54,893 nucleotides of DNA from a virus (taxonomy: Duplodnaviria > Heunggongvirae > Uroviricota > Caudoviricetes), in the IMG/VR virus record IMGVR_UViG_2880378312_000013. One strand, 5' to 3'. The notes below the pieces were generated by a model. The model was not told where the DNA came from, did not search any database, and was given only the letters and a program-made list of their open reading frames with translations. The position numbers and the translations under genes were made by a program. Within the stretch, counting starts at the first letter, position 1; each line of letters begins with the position of its first letter. Below are positions 2,665-54,893 of the stretch, piece by piece.

Positions 2665-5055
2665 TTATTTCGCTGCAAACTCATCGCATTTTGGCAACCA
2701 GTCAGCATTGCTTTCCTCTCTTAGGGCCAGATTAGTCTGCATTCCTTGATTGGTCCGTCGTTTCTCATACTGCAGCCCATATTCCTTGAGCATTAACGGT
2801 AGCCCCTTGCCAAACATGGTCAGACTGAGCGTATTTTTATAGCCGTTAGCCTCCATGTAGACCAGATAGGCATGGTAGAGGTAAGTTCGAGGCTGACGTG
2901 GAACAATATTAGCGTTCCCCATAAACATGCCCGTGGTGTCAGGTAGGACCTCAAGGTAGCCGCAAAAATCAAAAGCTGAATCAGCATCACGTTTGATGGT
3001 GAGCGCTTCATCGGAGTTCTGCTGTGACTGAAGCAATGTCCTGGCACTCATTGGGTCGCTGAAACGCTGCATAAGCTGGCGAACAATCACCGCTAGCTCA
3101 CTGGCAATTTTCTCTTTGAGCTGGGTATCGCGTTCCTCCGGGGCTATCTGGTCGGGGAAATGCAGGATCACCCTTCGGCGTGAAACTCCACCACTACGAT
3201 CAGTGAAGCGCATCGGATTATTGTTCACAGCCAGGATGACCGCCGGGATGTGGGTTGAATAGGCGTTCTGATATTTGGGATCAACGGATACCGCATCGCC
3301 GCCAGTGATGGCTTTTAGTCCGGCCCCGTCACCGCTCCACTTTTCCTGGTCGGGAAGTCGAATCAGTGAAAAACCTATTAACGCAGCTCGTTCTCTTGGC
3401 GACTCAAGCATTTCAATGGTTGCCGAGGTCGCGTTATCTTCACCCGCCAGCATGGTTGCTATTTCAGCAAGAATACTCTTTCCACTTCCGCCAGGGCCAG
3501 TGACCTCCAGAAACAGCTGCCAGTCATAACGGTTAGCCAGCACCATAAACAATGCAGCCAGAATAATGTCCCGTTTTTCAGGATTAAAACCTGCGGCACG
3601 ATCCAGCCAGCGCCAGAATGCCGGGGCATGGGTTTCCAGTGACTCACCGTCAACGGGCTGCGTGTAATCCACCTCGCACAGCGTACGTAACCAGTGCTTC
3701 TTATCGTGCGGGCTGAACAATCCTGTCCGGGTATCGAGCACACCGTTGCGAAATCCGATAAGTTGCCGCGCCGGATTCTGCTGTTGCGGAACGATCAGTT
3801 TGAGGGTTTCCACGAGAGACGCAATTTTCGCGGATGAAAAAGGTGCGTCGAGGCGCTGAAACAGCGCAGCGACATCACGGGCAAAATCGGCGTAATAGAT
3901 AACTTTCCAGGCCCCCGCCTCATAGCGTGAAAGGAGCTGCCCGTTCGGGTCTACTGCCAGTGAATTTTTATAGTGATCCACTACCCTCTGCGCTTTTTCG
4001 CTGACGCTCAGCGCGGTAAATTCAGCTTCGCTCATTGTGTCGAAGGGGCTGGCAACAGCTGGTTTTATTACTTCATGAATTGCATGCCGGGTGGCTTCTT
4101 CGCCGTTTTGCGTGAATGCATCGTTCCAGTCACCAAACACAGGCGGGAGCGCCATTGTGCAATTGCAGGCCCCGGTAACAGCTGCGCCCCTTGTTTGCCC
4201 CGCACCGTTGAGATCGCGGTCAGCAGCAATAATTATCTGGTGCGTTGGGTACTCACTGCAGGCAATGCTCGCCAGGGAAAGGAAATTGACGGACGAAAAG
4301 GCCACCATGACAGCATCGCCAGTCAGATAGTTGATAGTAAGTGCGGTGGCATATCCTTCCGCTATCCAGAGCCGTTTGGCTGCTTTGGCAGTACCTTCAA
4401 CCAGGTAAAAGGCATTCTTAACCTGACCGCCTTTAAGGAAGCATTTGCCCCCATTAGCGTTGATTAACTGCAGATTTACCAGCTCTCCATCTGCATACAA
4501 TGGAACGACAAGATCTCCCGCGCGAAATGCCACACCACCGACTTTATGCATAGCGGTTAATTCCCGGCAAGGCAGTGCAGGAAACCCTTTACTCGTCAGA
4601 TAGGCATTGCCAGTGGTCTGGCGGGACTTATCAAACAAACGGGCAGCCAGCACTGCTGCAGCTTTTCTCCCGTCCTCTTTTTCAGGAGAACCAGATTCAA
4701 GCATTCCCTGAGATACTGGCAGCAGGTTTCCGATAATGCCGTTTATTCTGTCTGCCGCTTCACTAATGCCTACATCCAGTACTTTACTTACAAGCGCCAG
4801 GCCATCACCTGCCCCGCACTGGTTACAGAACCACGTTCCCCGCCCTTCCTGGTCATCAAATCGAAAGCGGTCTTTCCCGGCACAGACCGGGCAGGGCTGG
4901 TGCCGATTTTTCAGTACATTTACGCCCAGCGCAGGTAAAATTCTTGACCAGTGACCCCGAGCTGCTTTCTCAGCCTGGCTAACTTTCATTCCTGACATTG
5001 TGCGGCCCTCCTTAGTGCAGCGCTGGTTTGTTGAGGTGACGGGAACAAAGTTCAT
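2665..5055 (-). CDS. P4 alpha-like primase/helicase (zinc-binding primase + D5-type NTPase)
   Basis: CxxC...CxxC zinc motif ([10 protein letters not shown]...CNQCGAGDG) and P-loop GPGGSGKS; true start may be the internal Met (MSGMKVSQ) about 57 nt downstream of the ORF start. Confidence 0.8.
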
Positions 5056-5335
5056 CCATGACCGTCATTCCGAGCAGTGAGAGAACCGGACAGGCTTTAA
5101 GCGGCCCCGACTCCATCAGATCCGAAAGCAACGCGCAGGCAATTTCCAGCCCTCTTTGCTGCCCATGCTGGCGCAGATAGAACCCTTCCAGCTCGCGGGC
5201 TATGGCATCTTCAAGTTCAGCGAGCGTCAGGCCGGAATAACGTTCCTGATGATTGCTTAGAGCCAGCCAGGCACAGGCAACGGCACGGCGATACAGAGCG
5301 GCACGAAGTGCCAGAAGAGATTCACAGCATATCAT
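5012..5335 (-). CDS. hypothetical protein (satellite early region)
   Basis: 107-aa ORF co-oriented and nearly contiguous with the primase gene. Confidence 0.4.
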
Positions 5336-5556
5336 CAGGCCACCTCCGCATTCATCAGGTCGTCATGGCAGCGTTGCACCACTCCATCCAGTTGCTCTGT
5401 CATCAGATAAATGAGGGAAACCAGTTGTTCGCATTGGGCACCTGCTGGCTTTTCATAACAGTCCTGCAGGGCTGCCATGCCAGTTACATACTCACCCACA
5501 TTGCGTAAATGTTTCAGCCTTACAACATCGTCGTAGGAAATCTCAAACTGGTTCAT
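5335..5556 (-). CDS. hypothetical protein (satellite early region)
   Basis: 73-aa ORF in operon-like arrangement. Confidence 0.4.
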
Positions 5557-6110
5557 AGCGTCACCTCCCCGGCAGGCAGCCGTGCAGAAAGGGAGAGTAC
5601 ATAATCTCGGACTAGCAAACGGCGCGCGGAACGCTCATCGCAGGAGACAGTGCGAAGCATACAGATGCGGGGGTGAGTGTCAGCACGGCGGATTGCGGCA
5701 AACACAAAGACATATTGCGGGTGTGACGGGGTGAGGATTGTAGCCATGATGGCAGCCTCCAATAAGTAGCGGTTATTGCTACCACCGGAAACGCCAATTT
5801 CACTGGTGGCAGCCCGAACGGGGTTGGCGTAACCGGCCTTATTGGAAACCGGCCAGCCCGAAGGCTGCCCCGCCCGGACTACCATTATCTCGATAGAACC
5901 ATGGTGTAAGCATAAACACCACAGCCCTGAAAATGGTTGTGCCTGAGCTACGACGTAAAAAAAGACGCAAGGGGCGTCAATTGTCGCCAATAAGTTATAC
6001 GGAACGCCAATTCCGGCTGCCGATTTTGCGACAGCGGAAAAACTATACCTGGAAATGACGACAGTAAGCAAGCCAGAATAAAGGTATTTAATGTATGCAG
6101 GTATCATCAT
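5553..6110 (-). CDS. hypothetical protein; real gene probably only the 3' third
   Basis: 185-aa ORF whose N-terminal part is low-complexity; a likely internal start at [11 protein letters not shown] would give about 64 aa. Confidence 0.3.
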
Positions 6111-47496: not shown

Positions 47497-47593
47497 ACGC
47501 CCTCCAAATATTGCGCGTTATGCATGTTATTTCACGCAATTATTTTGCGCAAGTTGATTTGCTTATCACGCAATAAAGAAATGTAATAAACGC
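47497..47593. promoter_or_regulatory. divergent promoter/operator region of the immunity switch
   Basis: Intergenic region between divergent cro-like and cI-like genes with repeated TCACGCAAT and palindromic TTGCGCAA motifs. Confidence 0.5.
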
Positions 47594-48286
47594 ATGAACA
47601 TAGGAAACCGAGTCAGACAACTTCGCCAAGCGAAGAACATGAAAATCGCCGATCTCGCTGAAGCGATAGGAGTAGATGCGGCGAACATCTCGCGCTTAGA
47701 AACGGGTAAGCAAAAACAATTTACCGAACAAACACTGAGTAATATTGCCAAGAGCTTAGGTGTTGATATTGCTGATCTCTTTACCTCTGCCCACAAAAGT
47801 AATACTGTATATAAAAACAGTAATAATGAGGATGTTGCGCAGGTGAAGGATGTGTTCCGTATTGAAATGCTGGATATCAGTGCCAGTGCGGGAAATGGCC
47901 TTATCCAGGGCGGTGATGTCATTGATGTGATTCATGCCATCGAATACAGAACTGATAATGCTGTATCAATGTTCGGCGGACGACCAGCCAATCACATCAA
48001 AGTTATCAACGTTCGTGGGGACAGTATGTGTCCAACCATTGAGCCAGGAGATCTCATCTTCGTTGATGTCAGCATCAATCAGTTTGATGGTGATGGTATA
48101 TATGTCTTTGGTTTTGATGACAAAATATACGTTAAAAGACTTCAAATGATTCCTGACAAACTGCTGGTGATTTCTGATAACCAGATTTACCGTGAATGGG
48201 GAATTACTAGCGAAAACGAACACCGATTCATGGTCTTTGGAAAGGTCTTAATCAGTCAGTCGCAAACCCTTAAGAGACATAATTAA
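47594..48286 (+). CDS. CI-like repressor (HTH + S24 LexA-type peptidase)
   Basis: N-terminal XRE HTH and C-terminal S24 domain with Ser (GDSMCPTI) and Lys (VKRL). Confidence 0.85.
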   Translation: MNIGNRVRQLRQAKNMKIADLAEAIGVDAANISRLETGKQKQFTEQTLSNIAKSLGVDIADLFTSAHKSNTVYKNSNNEDVAQVKDVFRIEMLDISASAGNGLIQGGDVIDVIHAIEYRTDNAVSMFGGRPANHIKVINVRGDSMCPTIEPGDLIFVDVSINQFDGDGIYVFGFDDKIYVKRLQMIPDKLLVISDNQIYREWGITSENEHRFMVFGKVLISQSQTLKRHN

Positions 48287-48563
48287 CCTCAATATCCCAT
48301 CCATCGGCCACCGAAAGGTGGCTTTTTATTACCTATAAATTTGCATATCTCGCAAATACCACTTGCATATCTCGCAATTTAATTTTATCTTTTATTCCAG
48401 ACCAACTACAGGATTACAACAAAATCTGGTTGCAACACGGTGCATGTGTCGTAAGCAGTCAGTAAATGTCAAAAACGAACAGGCAGGACGCCCACGAAGT
48501 AGCCGCCTGGGGCATATGAAGTCCAGGATGATTCGTTGAGTCATGTTGTGCCACTAGGCACTC

Positions 48564-48860
48564 ATGTTAAAGCAGGTGTATGAAATGAAAGTCCAGATTT
48601 TAAACAATAACTGTGAAGTCGTTTGGTCATACGACATAGCCGCCCCTGTAGATCAGAGCGGCGATAGCTGGACCAATGGGAAACATCAGATTATGGCTGG
48701 AGTTGTGTTCTCTTTACGCCGTGCTTTAGAACAGGCTGAAGTCTTTCCATCAGACCCTGAATGGAAATGGCCTTTTTCTATTTGTCCAAATTCGGAGAGT
48801 ACATTTCAGAAAATTGGTCAGAAAGTCGCACTCGAAGAGCATCAGCCAACTGTTTCCTGA
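48564..48860 (+). CDS. hypothetical protein
   Basis: 98-aa ORF downstream of cI. Confidence 0.35.
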   Translation: MLKQVYEMKVQILNNNCEVVWSYDIAAPVDQSGDSWTNGKHQIMAGVVFSLRRALEQAEVFPSDPEWKWPFSICPNSESTFQKIGQKVALEEHQPTVS

Positions 48861-48995
48861 TTTTTTCAGGTAACTCGTCGGCATCGCAGAAACAACAACG
48901 CTCGATCATGTTGAAAGCCGATTCGTAGAACTGTTTTTGCTGAGTGTCGCTGATGAACCGCCCCGGTTTTCCTGGAGAGTGTTTTATCTGTGAAC

Positions 48996-49883
48996 TCAGG
49001 CTGCCAGATCATCGTTTCTGATGGAAGCATAATAAGCTTTTTCTGCTTCTGCCGGAGGGATATGACCCAGCCTTCCCAGCAATCGTCGATTGTTATACCA
49101 GTCCACCCACGTGAGTGTGGCCAGTTCCACTTCTGCACGGTTTTTCCAGCTCTTACGGTGTATTACCTCCGCTTTGTAAAGACCATTGATGCTCTCCGCC
49201 ATCGCGTTGTCATACGAGTCACCTGTACTCCCTGTTGATGCCAGCAGTTTTGCTTCTTTTAGTCGCTCCGTATAGGCCAGTGATACATACTGAGAACCTT
49301 TATCACTGTGATGGACTGTGCCGGACGGCCGACGGGCCCACAACGCCTGCTCCAGTGCATCCAGCACGAATGTCGTTTCCATAGACGATGAGACTCGCCA
49401 CCCCACGATACATCCGGAAAACACATCAATGATGAACGCCACATAGACGAAGCCCTGCCATGTGCTGACGTAAGTAAAATCAGCCACCCACAGCTGGTCA
49501 GGACGTTCTGCCACGAACTGACGGTTTACGCGGTCGCCTGCGGAAACGGCTTTCCGGCTGACGGTAGTACGGACCTTTTTACCCCGGAGAACACCGGCAA
49601 GTCCCATAACCGCCATGAGGCGCGCCACTGTACATCTGGCCACCCTGATACCTTCGCGTAACAACTGGCGCCAGACTTTACGCACACCGTACACCTGATG
49701 ATTTTCATCGTATACGCGCTGTATCTCTCTCTTCAGCCAGTCATCGCGCTGCGCACGGGCACTGCGTTTATCCGGATGATGTCGCTGTTGCTGACAGTGG
49801 TAATACGTTGACGGGGCAATATGCAGTTCACTGCATACCGGTCCGACCCCGTACTGCTCACGCAGCTTATCCAGCAGCGGCAT
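48996..49883 (-). CDS. IS3-family transposase orfB (DDE integrase core)
   Basis: 295 aa with rve-type catalytic core. Confidence 0.9.
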   Translation of the reverse strand: MPLLDKLREQYGVGPVCSELHIAPSTYYHCQQQRHHPDKRSARAQRDDWLKREIQRVYDENHQVYGVRKVWRQLLREGIRVARCTVARLMAVMGLAGVLRGKKVRTTVSRKAVSAGDRVNRQFVAERPDQLWVADFTYVSTWQGFVYVAFIIDVFSGCIVGWRVSSSMETTFVLDALEQALWARRPSGTVHHSDKGSQYVSLAYTERLKEAKLLASTGSTGDSYDNAMAESINGLYKAEVIHRKSWKNRAEVELATLTWVDWYNNRRLLGRLGHIPPAEAEKAYYASIRNDDLAA

Positions 49884-50209
49884 TATTTTTTCCAGAGGCG
49901 GTCGAACTCCGCCTTCGCAAAATAAGCGGAAGCCTGGCGAAGGATATCGTTACTGCGGCGCAGTTCACGATTTTCACGTTCCAGCTCTTTCAGACGCTGA
50001 CGTTCAGCGGTGGTGAGTCCACCATCACCGCCCCCGGTATCCCGCTCATGCTGACGAACCCACACACGCAGAGTCTCTGGTGTACAGCCAATCTTTGGGG
50101 CAATGGAACAAATTGCCGCCCATTGTGAGTCATATTCGCCCTGACTTTCCAGAACCATACGGACTGCCCGTTGACGGACCTCGGGGGAAAAACGTGTATT
50201 TTTAGTCAT
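49883..50209 (-). CDS. IS3-family transposase orfA (HTH)
   Basis: 108 aa, [19 protein letters not shown]..., leucine-zipper-like C-terminus. Confidence 0.9.
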
Positions 50210-50823
50210 CCTGTTTACCTCTTTCTCAGGGAGTTTAGTCTCCAGGATTCCCGGGGCGGTTCACTGAGACAGGAAAAGAGCGACGTTACGATGATTTTAT
50301 TAATTGCATTATCAAGTTCTTTTTCATCAAAAGTCATTTGATTTTCCTTTTATGTATACGGGCTTAAAAGGATACCACCGAGCCTGAAGTGGTGAAAAGA
50401 CAGGCACATAACAGCTAAGTATTTTCAACCAGAGAGAATCCTTAGCGTTGTGGTGAATGCGGCTCAGCGCACGCGGGTTAAGGTTGAGGCTGACAGTCGA
50501 CCTTCTGTGGATACCCACCCGCCTGGTGTGCAACCTTCGCCAGGCACCGGGAGGCACCCGGCACCACAACTTTATGCTGTGTGTAGTCTTAGCGGTACCA
50601 GCTTGTACCCTTGCTTCCGGCTGGTACCGTCCTTTTTACAAAACAGAGAAGAGCATCACCGGACGACGGGCTCATAACCCAATCCATCCGGGCGGCTGCC
50701 ACCGCAGGTGTTCTTCTCTGTTTTGTGGAGAAACTAACCGCCCCTACGGGGGCATTTATGGAAATGTAATTGACTCAATAATCGCCGGACGGTGAGGGCT
50801 TCCTTTTACCCGAATTCAGCGCG

Positions 50824-51387
50824 GTGCAGCGCATATACGTGGAGAACAAAATGTCATTTATTAAAACTTTTTCCGGGAAGCATTTTTATTATGACAGGAT
50901 AAATAAAGACGACATCGTTATTAACGATATCGCGGTTTCCCTTTCAAATATCTGTCGCTTTGCAGGACATCTTTCACACTTCTACAGTGTCGCCCAACAT
51001 GCGGTGCTTTGCAGCCAGCTGGTGCCACAGGAATTTGCTTTTGAAGCTTTAATGCATGATGCAACAGAAGCATATTGCCAGGACATCCCCGCACCACTGA
51101 AACGACTTCTTCCTGACTATAAACGGATGGAAGAAAAAATAGACGCCGTAATACGTGAGAAATACGGGTTACCTCCTGTTATGAGCACGCCAGTGAAATA
51201 TGCCGATCTCATTATGCTGGCAACCGAACGCCGCGATCTCGGGCTTGATGATGGCTCTTTCTGGCCTGTACTGGAAGGTATCCCGGCAACAGAGATGTTC
51301 AAAGTGATTCCACAGGCACCGGGCCATGCCTACGGGATGTTTATGGAACGTTTTAACGAGTTATCGGAGTTACGCAAATGCGCATGA
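50824..51387 (+). CDS. HD-domain phosphohydrolase (YfdR-like)
   Basis: HD motif region (FAGHLSHFYSVAQHAVL...LMHDATEAY); likely start MSFIKTF. Confidence 0.8.
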   Translation: MQRIYVENKMSFIKTFSGKHFYYDRINKDDIVINDIAVSLSNICRFAGHLSHFYSVAQHAVLCSQLVPQEFAFEALMHDATEAYCQDIPAPLKRLLPDYKRMEEKIDAVIREKYGLPPVMSTPVKYADLIMLATERRDLGLDDGSFWPVLEGIPATEMFKVIPQAPGHAYGMFMERFNELSELRKCA

Positions 51388-52045: not shown

Positions 52046-52395
52046 TGGAGCCATACAGCCTCACACTCGATGAGGCCTGTCATTTTCTCAAGATATCCAG
52101 ACCGACTGCCATTAACTGGATACGCACAGGGCGTCTTCAGGCAACACGCAAAGATCCCACTAAGAATAAATCTCCTTACCTCACAACACGACAAGCCTGC
52201 ATTGCGGCTCTTCAGTCTCCGCTGCATACTGTCCAGGTGAGCGCGGGTGATGGCATAACAGAGGAAAGAAAATGTCACTCTTCCGCAGAGGTGAAATATG
52301 GTACGCCAGTTTCACATTGCCGAACGGTAAAAGATTTAAACAGTCTCTTGGAACAAAGGACAAAAGGCAGGCGACAGAACTCCATGACAAGCTAA
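52045..52395 (+). CDS. xis: excisionase (P22 Xis-like)
   Basis: [36 protein letters not shown]... HTH; overlaps int start. Confidence 0.7.
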
Positions 52396-53435
52396 AGGCT
52401 GAAGCATGGCGGGTCAGCAAACTTGGTGAAATACCTGATATAACGTTCGAGGAAGCGTGTGTCAGGTGGCTTGAAGAGAAAGCACATAAAAAATCGCTGG
52501 ACGATGACAAAAGCCGGATCGGATTCTGGCTTCAACATTTCGCAGGAATGCAACTAAGAGACATTACTGAATCAAAAATTTATTCAGCAATGCAGAAAAT
52601 GACGAACCGGCGTCATGAGGAAAACTGGAAACTCAGGGCAGAAGCATGCAGAAAAAAAGGGAAACCTGTTCCAGAATACACGCCAAAACCAGCGTCCGTT
52701 GCAACGAAGGCTACGCATCTTTCATTTATAAAGGCCCTACTAAGAGCCGCAGAGCGTGAATGGAAAATGCTGGATAAGGCACCAATTATTAAAGTGCCTC
52801 AACCAAAGAATAAACGGATCCGCTGGCTGGAGCCCCATGAAGCACAAAGGCTGATTGATGAATGTCCGGAGCCATTAAAGTCTGTTGTTGAATTTGCACT
52901 GGCAACAGGCTTAAGACGCTCGAACATCATCAACCTTGAATGGCAACAAATAGATATGCAGCGCCGGGTGGCATGGATAAACCCGGAAGAGAGTAAATCA
53001 AACCGCGCAATTGGCGTTGCGCTGAATGATACTGCATGTCGCGTATTGAAAAAACAAATCGGGAATCATCACCGTTGGGTATTTGTGTACAAGGAAAGCT
53101 GTACCAAACCAGACGGAACGAAAGCGCCAACAGTAAGGAAGATGCGGTATGACGCAAACACAGCCTGGAAAGCGGCGCTGAGACGGGCTGGTATTGATGA
53201 TTTCAGATTTCACGACTTGAGACACACCTGGGCAAGTTGGCTGGTTCAAGCCGGAGTCCCGTTGTCAGTGTTACAGGAAATGGGAGGCTGGGAGTCTATC
53301 GAAATGGTTCGTCGATATGCTCACCTTGCACCTAATCACCTTACCGAACACGCACGGCAAATAGACTCGATCCTGAACCCATCGGTCCCAAATTTGTCCC
53401 AGTCAAAAAATAAGGAAGGTACTAATGATGTGTAA
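52272..53435 (+). CDS. int: tyrosine integrase (P22-type)
   Basis: 387 aa ending in the catalytic box ([39 protein letters not shown]); stops 15 nt from the tRNA-Thr 3' end. Confidence 0.95.
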
Positions 53436-53449
53436 CTTATTGATTTTAA

Positions 53450-53525
53450 TGGTGCCGATAATAGGAGTCGAACCTACGACCTTCGCATTACGAATGCGCT
53501 GCTCTACCAACTGAGCTATATCGGC
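53450..53525 (-). tRNA. thrW: tRNA-Thr (anticodon CGU)
   Basis: Reverse complement gives GCCGATATAGCTCAGTTGGTAGAGCAGCGCATTCGTAATGCGAAGGTCGTAGGTTCGACTCCTATTATCGGCACCA with intact cloverleaf and CCA. Confidence 0.9.
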
Positions 53526-53639: not shown

Positions 53640-54893
53640 TTACGCACGAATGGTGTAATCACCAATGCCGATCCACTTGTAAGTGGTCAGTGCTTCCAGC
53701 CCCATTGGGCCACGCGCGTGGAGTTTTTGTGTGCTTACCGCCACTTCCGCACCCAGTCCAAACTGGCCGCCGTCGGTAAAACGCGTAGAGGCGTTAACGT
53801 AAACAGCGGACGAATCCACTTCGTTAACAAAACGCTGGGCGTTGCGCATATCGCGGGTCAGGATCGCATCGGAGTGTTGCGTGCCGTGTTCACGAATATG
53901 GGCGATGGCATCGTCAAGATCGCTGACGATTTTGACGTTCAAATCTAATGACAGAAACTCATCGTCATACTCTTCGGCTTTAACCGCCACCACCTTCGCA
54001 GGGCCTGTCTGCAACTGCGCCAGCGCAGATGCATCTGCGTGTAACGTCACGCCGCTTTCCGCCATTTGTTTGCTTAATGCGGGCAGGAAGCTATAGGCGA
54101 TGTTTTTATTCACCAGCAACGTTTCTACCGTATTACATGTGCTCGGACGCTGAGTTTTCGCATTGACGATTACTTTCAGGGCTTCAGCAATCTCTGCACT
54201 TTCATCAACATAAATATGGCATACGCCTATACCACCTGTGATCACCGGGATCGTCGACTGCTCGCGGCACAGTTTATGCAAACCAGCCCCGCCGCGCGGG
54301 ATCAGCATGTCGATGTATTTATCCATACGCAGCATTTCACTGACCAGCGCACGGTCAGGATTATCAATCGCCTGCACGGCACCCGCCGGTAAGCCACAGG
54401 ATTTCAGGGCGTCCTGAATCACCACCACCGTTGCCGCGTTAGTGCGACAGGTTTCTTTGCCACCACGCAGGATCACCGCGTTACCGGTTTTCAGGCACAG
54501 CGAAGCGACATCAACCGTCACGTTCGGGCGCGCTTCATAAATCACGCCAATAACCCCCAGCGGTACGCGACGACGCTCAAGACGCAGGCCGCTGTCCAGT
54601 ACGCCGCCATCGATTACCTGCCCCACTGGATCGGCGAGGTTGCACACCTGACGTACATCGTCGGCAATGCCTTTCAGCCGTGCGGGCGTCAGTGCCAGAC
54701 GGTCAAGCATCGCTTCGCTAAGGCCATTGGCTCGCGCGTCAGCAACATCCTGGGCGTTAGCGTTGAGGATGATTTCGCTTTGTGCTTCCAGTTCATCGGC
54801 GATTTTTTCCAGCACGCGATTTTTTTCGCGGCTGGAGAGTTGCGCTAATTTATACGAGGCTTGCTTCGCGGCAATGCCCATTTGTTCCAGCAT
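53640..54893 (-). CDS. proA: gamma-glutamyl phosphate reductase
   Basis: 417-aa ORF, aldehyde-dehydrogenase fold; conserved proA-thrW neighbourhood. Confidence 0.95.

Follow-up and report, generated by a model that had tools for sequence, protein, structure and literature searches.

Recent insertion of IS629 into o81, a small and mostly unannotated gene of an SfV-like prophage

The window analysed here, a stretch of 54,893 nucleotides from a Caudoviricetes record (IMGVR_UViG_2880378312_000013), contains an insertion sequence (IS) lying between two short minus-strand coding segments, which raises the question of whether a transposition event has split a genuine phage gene. A preliminary description of the sequence had recognized an IS629-like insertion with a 4-bp target duplication splitting a small phage open reading frame (ORF), and the main points of that description held. 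The element is a complete minus-strand IS629 of 1,310 bp (48954-50263), delimited by its boundaries and by the terminal inverted repeats TGAACCGCCCCGG...CCGGGGCGGTTCA at its orfB-side (48954-48978) and orfA-side (50239-50263) ends, which are identical at the terminal 13 of 13 bases and at 22 of 25 overall. Its ends of the TG...CA type, its imperfect inverted repeats and its length of about 1.3 kb are those of the IS3 family. On the minus strand, orfA (49883-50209) encodes a 108-aa protein with an HTH_Tnp_1 domain (PF01527, E 1.3e-12), and the orfB frame (48996-49883), a 295-aa ORF in the -1 phase relative to orfA, encodes the DDE 'rve' integrase core (PF00665, E 1e-26). An A6 run is located at the orfA stop, and an ALIL frameshift-stimulating pseudoknot is predicted over the orfA/orfB junction (49812-49928, minus strand; Rfam RF01497, 120.9 bits against a gathering score of 50). 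The identical IS sequence is labelled 'IS3 family transposase, programmed frameshift' by PGAP. Members of the IS3 family produce OrfA and, via -1 ribosomal frameshifting, an OrfAB transposase, and they transpose by a copy-out/paste-in route through a circular intermediate, leaving duplications of 3-4 bp. As far as can be read from the letters, all features needed for IS3-family transposition are intact in this copy.

The IS is 100% identical to the copies on the pO157 plasmids of strains EC4115 and TW14359, which were counted as IS629 in a previous survey (PMC3271280), and the name used here rests on this identity together with that study. It shares 95-96% identity with copies named 'IS1203 family' by PGAP that are inserted nearby in other strains, a difference of 4-5% that matches the subtype divergence reported in the survey (PMC3271280). 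The IS629/IS1203 copies of O157:H7 described there have the same 1,310 bp, inverted repeats, orfA/orfB arrangement, -1 frameshift and ALIL pseudoknot, as well as the same target duplications of 3-4 bp and the same preference for prophages, in which 62% of the copies lie; the window copy differs from them in location only.

The tetranucleotide CTGA flanks the IS on both sides (48950-48953 and 50264-50267). Matches to the corresponding empty site (1,287 bp, with a single CTGA) reached 100.0% identity over its full length in at least 28 complete genomes, most of them O157:H7, and covered 80% of it or more in 181 genomes. The occupied site, searched as a 2,601-bp query, gave a single unbroken match at 100% in 17 genomes, which are from cattle isolates. 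The two sites differ in length by 1,314 bp, that is, by the 1,310 bp of the IS and the 4 bp of the duplication. The IS is absent from strains 144 and 150, which by name and accession number belong to the series of the 17 occupied-site isolates. The insertion is recent, being limited to 17 near-identical cattle isolates whose sister O157:H7 genomes keep the untouched site. An IS can also reach a locus by recombination between two IS copies, in which case the CTGA repeats would be coincidental, and the 16-18 matching places per O157 genome offer ample substrate for such an exchange. However, the flanks are contiguous at 100% identity in IS-free genomes, with one CTGA between them and nothing gained or lost, and a rearrangement joint was therefore rejected as an extremely improbable origin. 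We favour, with a probability of about 0.9, a recent IS629 transposition into a genuine gene of the SfV-like prophage, hereafter o81, that does not belong to the early operon. On this reading, a complete IS629 copy moved into o81, split it after codon 25 and duplicated the 4-bp CTGA.

When the IS and a single CTGA are deleted, the minus-strand segment MTFDEKELDNAINKIIVTSLFSCLS continues in frame into DTQQKQ...SPNLDK, which restores an ORF of 81 aa (25 + 56) rather than the roughly 70 aa estimated at first, whereas removal of none or only 3 of the duplicated bases breaks the reading frame. The restored ORF is not a product of chance, since the exact empty site exists at 100% identity in many genomes. 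The 5' part of o81 (50268-50337, minus strand) begins with a start codon at 50337-50335, and an AAGGA Shine-Dalgarno sequence lies 7 nt upstream; the 3' part (48778-48953, minus strand) comprises codons 25-81 and the stop codon and is now without a promoter or a start codon. The interrupted gene therefore spans 48778-50337, and the start of the feature had been placed 2 nt off, at 48776. What can still be translated from the o81 start is a 40-codon fusion ORF (50215-50337, minus strand) made of 25 o81 codons and 15 IS-derived codons, whose stop codon is separated by 5 nt from the orfA ATG downstream of it, at 50209. By leaving only this fusion peptide and a promoterless 3' remnant, the insertion almost certainly created a null allele.

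Whether a gene was lost depends on whether o81 is one. The comparison with IS-free relatives suggested in the preliminary description uncovered intact counterparts: o81 is unbroken in each of the seven near-identical IS-free copies that were examined (phage SfV, two other phages and four E. coli genomes), and it is 98.8% identical in amino acids to an unannotated SfV ORF at U82619 25054-25296. There are nevertheless reasons to suspect a spurious antisense ORF, in which case the IS would merely interrupt a spacer without coding function that runs from orf33 to the downstream genes of the PL operon, and no gene would have been inactivated. PGAP does not call the ORF in FRIK2455 or in strain 113; the SfV record has only the opposite-strand orf33 and a putative terminator over the ORF start; neither Pfam nor NCBIfam gave matches; and the ORF overlaps by 83 bp (48778-48860) the annotated orf33 homologue. 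The latter, o91, is a plus-strand gene (48585-48860, alternative start 48564) of the SfV orf33 family (phrog_3195), which is intact in the window and is supported by conserved homologues and a coding signature.

The diverged relatives of o81 argue strongly against a spurious ORF. Against the phrog_3311 profile, residues 1-81 of o81 aligned to positions 1-81 of 81 with an E value of 3.1e-55, and full-length homologues of 72-84 aa with 35-65% identity were found in five other genera, including Yersinia, Salmonella, Klebsiella and Cronobacter. This family was recovered only by an exhaustive HMMER search and a profile search; when the 81-aa protein was used in a pattern scan of GTDB species representatives, no relatives were confirmed. 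The seven near-identical copies carry 4 SNPs in o81 and 14 in o91, too few to judge coding, and SNP counting was therefore replaced by comparison with the diverged homologues. Differences from these fall mostly at third codon positions (for example 13/5/31 at the three positions over 53 non-overlapping codons), and pN (0.19-0.45) is well under pS (0.67-0.92). Over the 53 non-overlapping codons of five homologues that are paired with an orf33-family gene, pN was 0.19-0.29 and pS 0.70-0.86; for two solo homologues, which have no orf33 partner at all, the values were 0.35-0.45 and 0.67-0.92. A signature of this strength where nothing overlaps effectively refutes the antisense view, and the AlphaFold2 model of o81, three helices with a pLDDT of 81, also speaks against it. 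We therefore regard a spurious ORF as very unlikely. On these sequence comparisons, o81 is a genuine protein-coding gene under purifying selection, with a predicted three-helix product, and the 83 bp that it shares with the 3' end of o91 are dual-coding.

Searches of o81 and o91 against Pfam and NCBIfam gave no credible match, and PADLOC gave no significant match to a defence protein model, so that these three resources place neither protein in a known anti-phage defence or toxin-antitoxin system. Profile searches against PDB sequences returned nothing below E 0.05, and a Foldseek search of the o81 model against PDB and BFVD returned no match with E <1; Rip1 of phage HK446, the rank-8 Foldseek match, was discarded at a probability of 0.02. 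The model of o91 (pLDDT 45) was too poor for structure search. The Cys cluster noted at the outset is present in the reconstructed protein but is not a family trait, since CCFC is retained only in the closer relatives; C46 is widely conserved, and the most distant homologue has no Cys. In E. coli, many copies of o81 are frameshifted, rearranged or shortened by in-frame deletions, and the gene may therefore be dispensable and decaying.

The window carries a tyrosine integrase gene (52272-53435, PF00589), a tRNA gene (53453-53525) and a 417-codon minus-strand ORF (53640-54893); in the annotation of this region in FRIK2455, tRNA-Thr is followed by proA, whose position matches that of the 417-codon ORF. 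Phages of the SfV group typically integrate at thrW beside proA (PMC3636060), and the window shares 98.6% identity with SfV DNA over 960 bp. As judged by its immunity and early-left sequence, the prophage is SfV-like and lambdoid, integrated at tRNA-Thr (thrW) beside proA. Between cI and orf32, SfV (U82619) has the intact 81-codon ORF and its orf33 partner, as does the window prophage, but it has no IS; its record leaves the 81-codon ORF unannotated and places a putative terminator over its start. The window prophage in turn lacks about 1.3 kb present in SfV (the yfdP/yfdQ genes, SfV orf32/orf31).

The absence of o81 from the SfV record extends to the PGAP annotation of most genomes: at this locus, RefSeq and the record usually show the convergent partner, orf33, alone. 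PGAP does call o81 (WP_000141752/3) where the competing ORF is uncalled, for example in AR216.2b and in AC-3, where the competing ORF is split by an IS. The gene is unannotated because gene callers keep one of two overlapping convergent ORFs, and its disruption consequently does not show up in standard lists of pseudogenes. RefSeq (in most genomes) and the SfV reference record thus have an annotation gap where a small gene is conserved and under selection.

The interrupted ORF had been described as an early-region gene. Its location agrees with this, since o81 lies between a cI-type repressor gene and the early-left genes; its membership of the early operon does not follow. The repressor has HTH and S24 domains, and operator-like sites lie on both sides of its gene. 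Directly after the cI terminator (48306-48323) are two identical plus-strand sites, TTGCATATCTCGCAA (48341-48355 and 48363-48377), which we infer to be OL/PL (48341-48377) directed toward o91; the only related sites, with 2-3 mismatches, are in the cI-cro intergenic region (47511-47525 and 47559-47573). As o81 is oriented opposite to this putative PL operon and converges on cI/orf33, it is probably outside the early operon, of which o91 would be the first gene. Upstream of o81 is a conserved minus-strand element, TTTTCACCAC-N10-GTGGTATCCTT (50368-50398), which reads either as a -35 TTCACC and a -10 TATCCT spaced by 16 nt or as a hairpin. A consensus promoter scan detected no strong sigma-70 promoter for o81, the hexamers of the element being a weak consensus match (8/12). 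The same element stands at the same position before unrelated ORFs in the E. coli K-12 prophage e14 (ymfI) and in strain N9. The hairpin at 50374-50393 was considered as a terminator and rejected; its T-tail is not conserved in relatives while the -35/-10-like hexamers are, and the promoter or operator reading is therefore favoured. From the weak match and the conservation, the element is a candidate promoter or operator. With such a promoter, o81 would be an accessory gene transcribed on its own during repression of PL, and transcription from this promoter would now run straight into the transposase gene.

The same geometry suggests another consequence of the insertion, since 1.3 kb of foreign DNA would now stand between PL/o91 and the downstream early-left genes (yfdR ... 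xis, int). The main effect could then be polarity on the PL operon rather than the loss of o81, with the IS lowering excision and induction and locking the prophage in place. The operator-like sites and promoter-like sequence past the cI terminator do read toward o91, yfdR, xis and int, the IS carries a plus-strand terminator-like hairpin (49232-49247), three more IS629-type elements have inserted into this operon in other strains at points outside o81, and the e14 genes ymfJ and intE are induced together under a cI-like control (PMC11002266). However, PL, the length of its transcript and any antitermination are all putative, the terminator is a consensus match, and int and xis may have a promoter of their own. 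We consider it doubtful that polarity is the main effect; it would in any case be compatible with the inactivation of o81.

An IS629 in a small prophage gene is an ordinary and already known kind of event. Such insertions are numerous in the prophages of O157:H7, have been well catalogued and already serve for strain typing, so that this one carries little weight by itself beyond marking the lineage of a small clade of cattle isolates. The locus, however, has been hit repeatedly. Four insertion points, involving different IS subtypes and orientations, were found within the 246-bp o81, after nt 74 in the window and after nt 91, 95 and 172 in other strains, and three further IS629-type insertions were found in other strains in the surrounding 2.1 kb, at 48682-48684, 50736-50738 and about 50772. 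No shared motif was evident among the targets, which have the duplications CTGA, AAC, AAC and (T/C)TG. This clustering, together with the common frameshifted and deleted o81 alleles, might mean that the insertion was not a neutral accident and that the o81 region is a regional hot spot of IS629 or is selected for inactivation in O157:H7. On the other side, IS629 is highly active and favours prophages (62% of copies, PMC3271280), and thousands of O157 genomes have been sequenced, so that several insertions in one prophage region may be expected; we hold a hot spot or selection to be possible but unlikely. With seven independent insertions in about 2.1 kb, the locus is well suited to testing hot spots against counter-selection of the early-left region in O157:H7.

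Beyond the insertion, o81 and o91 form a recurrent arrangement. The overlap geometry is shared by six diverged o81/o91 contexts, with 3' overlaps of 74-110 bp (nominally up to 155 bp) in homologous pairs, and in relatives down to about 50% identity o81 is always paired with an orf33-family gene. The pair is conserved across E. coli/Shigella, Yersinia- and Salmonella-type prophages and several metagenome-derived prophage contigs, while the more distant o81 homologues are solo and lie opposite the late operon between the Q and holin genes. Since the coding regions overlap, expression of both genes would necessarily give overlapping transcripts, and convergent overlapping transcription would make o81 expression mutually exclusive with PL/o91 transcription. 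A rather speculative extension, to which we give low credence, is that phrog_3311 and phrog_3195 constitute a mobile and so far undescribed two-gene lambdoid module acting as an excludon-type switch, its repeated disruption by IS629 resulting from selection. If so, the lysogen product could be, for example, an exclusion or defence factor and the induction product its antidote. Whether beside the repressor or in the Q-lysis accessory slot, the pair is a tractable candidate for a switch between lysogenic and lytic expression.

Two known arrangements resemble this one. Reverse-oriented accessory genes of lambdoid phages ('morons') have their own promoter inside lytic operons; like them, o81 homologues oppose the surrounding operon, beside repressor/PL or between Q and the lysis genes, and lie among accessory cassettes such as HicAB and Fic/Phd. 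Unlike morons, o81 in the closer relatives travels with an overlapping operon-sense partner, and its promoter is only putative. The second is ymfJ/ymfI of e14, likewise located between a cI-like repressor and the ymfH/xis/int side and likewise convergent, with a 63-bp 3' overlap. YmfI and o81, and YmfJ and o91, have no detectable sequence similarity, and the e14 proteins and the strain N9 pair were rejected as o81/o91 homologues after sequence comparison; by its position, ymfJ/ymfI is an analogue of o91/o81, not a homologue. The ymfI-ymfJ pair has been listed as a convergent excludon from RNA-seq (PMC12288877). During the SOS response, induction of ymfJ and intE comes late and is subject to cI-like control, and the response of ymfI is much weaker (PMC11002266). 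In addition, e14 contains a segment 98.9% identical to window positions 50369-50459, starting 32-36 bp before the ATG of the antisense gene.

In the window, a lambdoid prophage resembling SfV has integrated at tRNA-Thr (53453-53525) beside proA (53640-54893), with the integrase gene int at 52272-53435 on the + strand; this phage group is known to integrate at thrW/proA (PMC3636060), and the insertion region shares 98.6% identity with phage SfV over 960 bp. Within this prophage, a 1,310-bp element with its ORFs on the minus strand was found at 48954-50263. Its terminal inverted repeats (TGAACCGCCCCGG... / ...CCGGGGCGGTTCA) match at 22 of 25 positions, the outer 13 bases being identical. The element encodes orfA (50209-49883, minus, 108 codons), with the Pfam HTH_Tnp_1 domain, and an overlapping orfB frame (49883-48996, minus, 295 codons), with the Pfam rve DDE core (E 1e-26). 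At their junction, an A6 run sits at the orfA stop and the Rfam ALIL frameshift pseudoknot was matched (120.9 bits versus a gathering score of 50). The element is 100% identical to pO157 plasmid copies, including those of EC4115 and TW14359, and is flanked by a CTGA target-site duplication (48950-53 and 50264-67), single in the empty site. These data confirm the preliminary description, which had proposed an IS629-like insertion with a 4-bp duplication. IS629 has been catalogued in O157:H7, including copies on these pO157 plasmids; its target duplications are 3-4 bp, and prophages hold 62% of its copies (PMC3271280).

Deletion of the IS and one CTGA restores a single 81-codon minus-strand ORF, o81 (MTFDEKELDNAINKIIVTSLFSCLSDTQQKQFYESAFNMIERCCFCDADELPEKIRKQLADALRVRLSDQFSEMYSPNLDK; 48778-50337 in its split form), while its frame is lost when zero or three duplicated bases are removed. 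The two peptide segments reported previously are exact and join in frame in this way, giving 81 rather than roughly 70 aa. At least 28 complete genomes, most of them O157:H7, contain an uninterrupted match at 100.0% identity to an empty-site query (654 bp of left flank and 633 bp of right flank with a single CTGA), and 181 genomes match it at 80% coverage or more. The occupied site (2,601-bp query) was found in a single piece at 100% identity in 17 complete genomes, all from cattle isolates named 113 to 141; strains 144 and 150, with names and accession numbers in the same series, carry the empty site. IS629 has therefore inserted simply into o81, and the distribution among these isolates points to a single recent insertion within one clade. 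The event is a textbook case of IS629 insertion polymorphism within an O157:H7 prophage. Known copies have exactly the sequence of this IS, and public genomes already show the insertion under the PGAP label of an IS3-family transposase.

The reality of o81 needed checking, because PGAP leaves it unannotated in both the IS-free FRIK2455 and the IS-bearing strain 113, the SfV record holds only orf33 on the other strand and a 'putative terminator' across the o81 start, word-indexed protein searches went no further than near-identical E. coli copies, of which many are frameshifted or rearranged, and a scan of GTDB species representatives for o81 relatives found none. Several results argue for a gene. 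Comparison with IS-free relatives, the check proposed previously, found an uninterrupted o81 in three phages, SfV among them, and in four E. coli genomes, and o81 matches phrog_3311 end to end (E 3e-55). PGAP does call it (WP_000141752/3) where the competing + strand ORF goes uncalled, as in AR216.2b and in AC-3, in which that ORF is split by an IS. Exhaustive HMMER and profile searches recovered full-length relatives (72-84 aa, 35-62% identity) from Yersinia, Salmonella, Klebsiella and Cronobacter genomes and from metagenomes, and tblastn added unannotated partners at 60-65% identity. Moreover, when the 53 o81 codons that overlap nothing were compared with seven homologues, the differences fell mostly at third positions (e.g. 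13/5/31 by codon position), with pN 0.19-0.29 and pS 0.70-0.86 against the five homologues paired with an o91 homologue, and pN 0.35-0.45 and pS 0.67-0.92 against the two solo ones. AlphaFold2, run with a small alignment, gave a three-helix model (best-model pLDDT 81, pTM 0.55). Together, these results show that o81 is a real gene. Searches of Pfam, NCBIfam, PADLOC, PDB sequences and a fold library matched no entry to either o81 or o91.

The Cys cluster noted earlier is retained as CC[FY]C in the closer relatives of the CCFC-bearing o81 only; C46 is widely conserved, and the most distant family member has no Cys, making a conserved metal-binding cluster unlikely. Some E. coli genomes carry a different o81 ending, with the final ~15 codons exchanged (JCH8249, L006 2194-2702; proteins P0010, P0011 and P0022) through a rearrangement that fuses a truncated tail-fibre gene with the module (window position 48822 onward); the resulting 95-aa variant is WP_000141754 in PGAP.

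The + strand partner o91 (48585-48860, 91 codons; phrog_3195, SfV orf33) is also genuinely coding, with a third-position bias (e.g. 16/8/36) and pN (0.18-0.34) well under pS (0.64-0.85) among homologues; its AlphaFold2 model is unreliable (pLDDT 45). The final 83 bp of o81 overlap the o91 end. Every examined o81 homologue at about 50% identity or more has a convergent o91 homologue with overlapping 3' ends, and a search begun from o91 homologues gave the same pairing. Yersinia-type loci (L014-17) have an overlap of ~95 bp, Salmonella loci (L025/26) one of 74 bp and L018-20 one of 110 bp; for L027-29, with the o91 ORFs called through to a later stop, it is nominally ~150 bp. Most pairs lie directly after a repressor and head an early-left operon (kilR, gam and recE are among the genes that follow); the pair in L018-20 differs, lying immediately upstream of holin genes. 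More distant o81 homologues (37-41% identity) are solo, opposite the late operon between Q and holin genes, amid accessory cassettes. The interrupted ORF as a selected gene, and its conserved overlapping convergent pairing with the orf33 family, are absent from annotation and, as far as we found, from the literature consulted; this pair alone has some potential for novelty.

The slot between the cI-type repressor and a conserved ymfH-like segment holds three mutually unrelated convergent pairs with overlapping 3' ends. Besides o91/o81, there are ymfJ/ymfI in e14 (L013 1878-2465), overlapping by 63 bp, and in strain N9 a pair of 68 and 63 codons (L010 478-837), overlapping by 39 bp; slot and geometry are conserved, with the sequence replaced. 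In all three, 32-36 bp separate the ATG of the antisense ORF from the edge of a near-identical segment that they have in common. The segment contains TTTTCACCAC-N10-GTGGTATCCTT, which reads as a -35 TTCACC, a 16-nt spacer and a -10 TATCCT. This element (50368-50398, minus, 30-60 nt upstream of o81) also occurs in L013, L010, L014, L025, L027 and L029, preceding o81 homologues as well as the unrelated ymfI and N9 ORFs, and in L029 both arms are changed symmetrically (ACCGC...GCGGT). We infer a promoter for whichever antisense gene fills the slot; a palindromic operator may be embedded in it, or the element may form an RNA hairpin. The e14 pair, similar in slot and geometry and unrelated in sequence, is listed from RNA-seq as a convergent excludon (PMC12288877), and multi-omics data showed ymfJ and intE strongly induced late in SOS under cI-like control, ymfI much less (PMC11002266). 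By analogy, these data support the general picture.

The cI-type repressor gene (47594-48286, +; HTH and Peptidase_S24 domains) is followed by a terminator (48306-48323) and then, 22 bp apart at 48341 and 48363, by two identical copies of an operator-like site, TTGCATATCTCGCAA. Related sites with 2-3 mismatches occur in the 55-kb window only in the cI-cro intergenic region. Operator-like 15-mers (TTGC-N7-GCAA) thus flank cI on both sides, two imperfect ones at 47511-47573 and the identical two within 48341-48377, and they are likely OR and OL. Beyond o81 come a conserved GC-rich stretch and then the + strand genes yfdR, others of the early-left group, xis and int. The identical sites would mark OL/PL, with PL reading rightward via o91 towards int. 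On this reading, o81 would oppose the early-left operon and converge on cI and o91, so that the label of 'early-region gene' needs correction. The preliminary interpretation is otherwise supported, with protein length and Cys cluster likewise corrected.

The insertion severs o81 after codon 25, leaving a 40-codon fusion ORF (50337-50215) and 56 3' codons without promoter and start codon; o91 is unaffected. The claimed inactivation holds as to the cut, and the allele would be null. The convergent o81/o91 transcription overlap would be broken, and 1.3 kb would separate the putative PL and o91 from the downstream early-left genes, whose expression may be lowered by the IS with its + strand terminator-like hairpin (49232-49247). 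The IS is oriented as o81, and the fusion ORF stops at a TAA 5 nt before the orfA ATG (50215-50209, minus). The o81 promoter would therefore read into the transposase gene, with o81 translation likewise running to the orfA start, and more transposase might be made as a result.

In other strains, the equivalent of 48682-50772 contains six more IS629/IS1203 insertion points, in both orientations. Three, traced through database proteins that are truncated or fused, lie within the 246-bp o81 gene of other strains (L030, L031, and L032/L033 from nt 2501), after nt 91, 95 (O157:H7 TW09195 and one other assembly) and 172, all opposite in orientation to the window's IS after nt 74. AC-3 carries one in o91 (48682-84) and one shortly upstream of yfdR (50736-38), each with an AAC duplication (L005 686-1995 and 2739-4048), and NZRM4169 has another shortly upstream of yfdR (~50771-72; L004 1460-2769). 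Full-length comparison of four copies, that of the window and the three from complete genomes, gave three sequence types 4-5% apart, matching the three IS629 subtypes described in O157:H7 (PMC3271280). The second AC-3 copy lies 3 bp or less from a joint at ~50740-50751, inside a short GC-rich hairpin-like repeat (CCCCTACGGGGG), where the O157 thrW prophage, unlike SfV (L002), lacks ~1.3 kb bearing yfdP/yfdQ (orf32/orf31).

Within 50340-50830, the segment at 50417-50639 (+) matched STnc100, a family of prophage sRNAs, at full length and below threshold (RF02076; 43 bits versus a gathering score of 47, E 5.6e-8; bioRxiv 10.64898/2026.05.13.724894). Its + strand folds much more stably than shuffled sequences (z -6.4; minus strand, z -3.6), and part of it is 92-99% conserved in ~2,000 E. 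coli genomes. The PGAP label is 'frameshifted hypothetical protein' throughout the genomes examined, and YmfH in K-12; the segment is probably an RNA element and not a pseudogene. At the far end of the window, a P4-type module (2668-6110, minus) encodes a 796-aa primase/helicase (Zn-ribbon, Toprim and D5 domains) and an Ash-family protein (5556-6110, minus), with matches to C4 antisense RNA (5802-5889) and isrK (5958-6035), and looks like a satellite or cryptic element.
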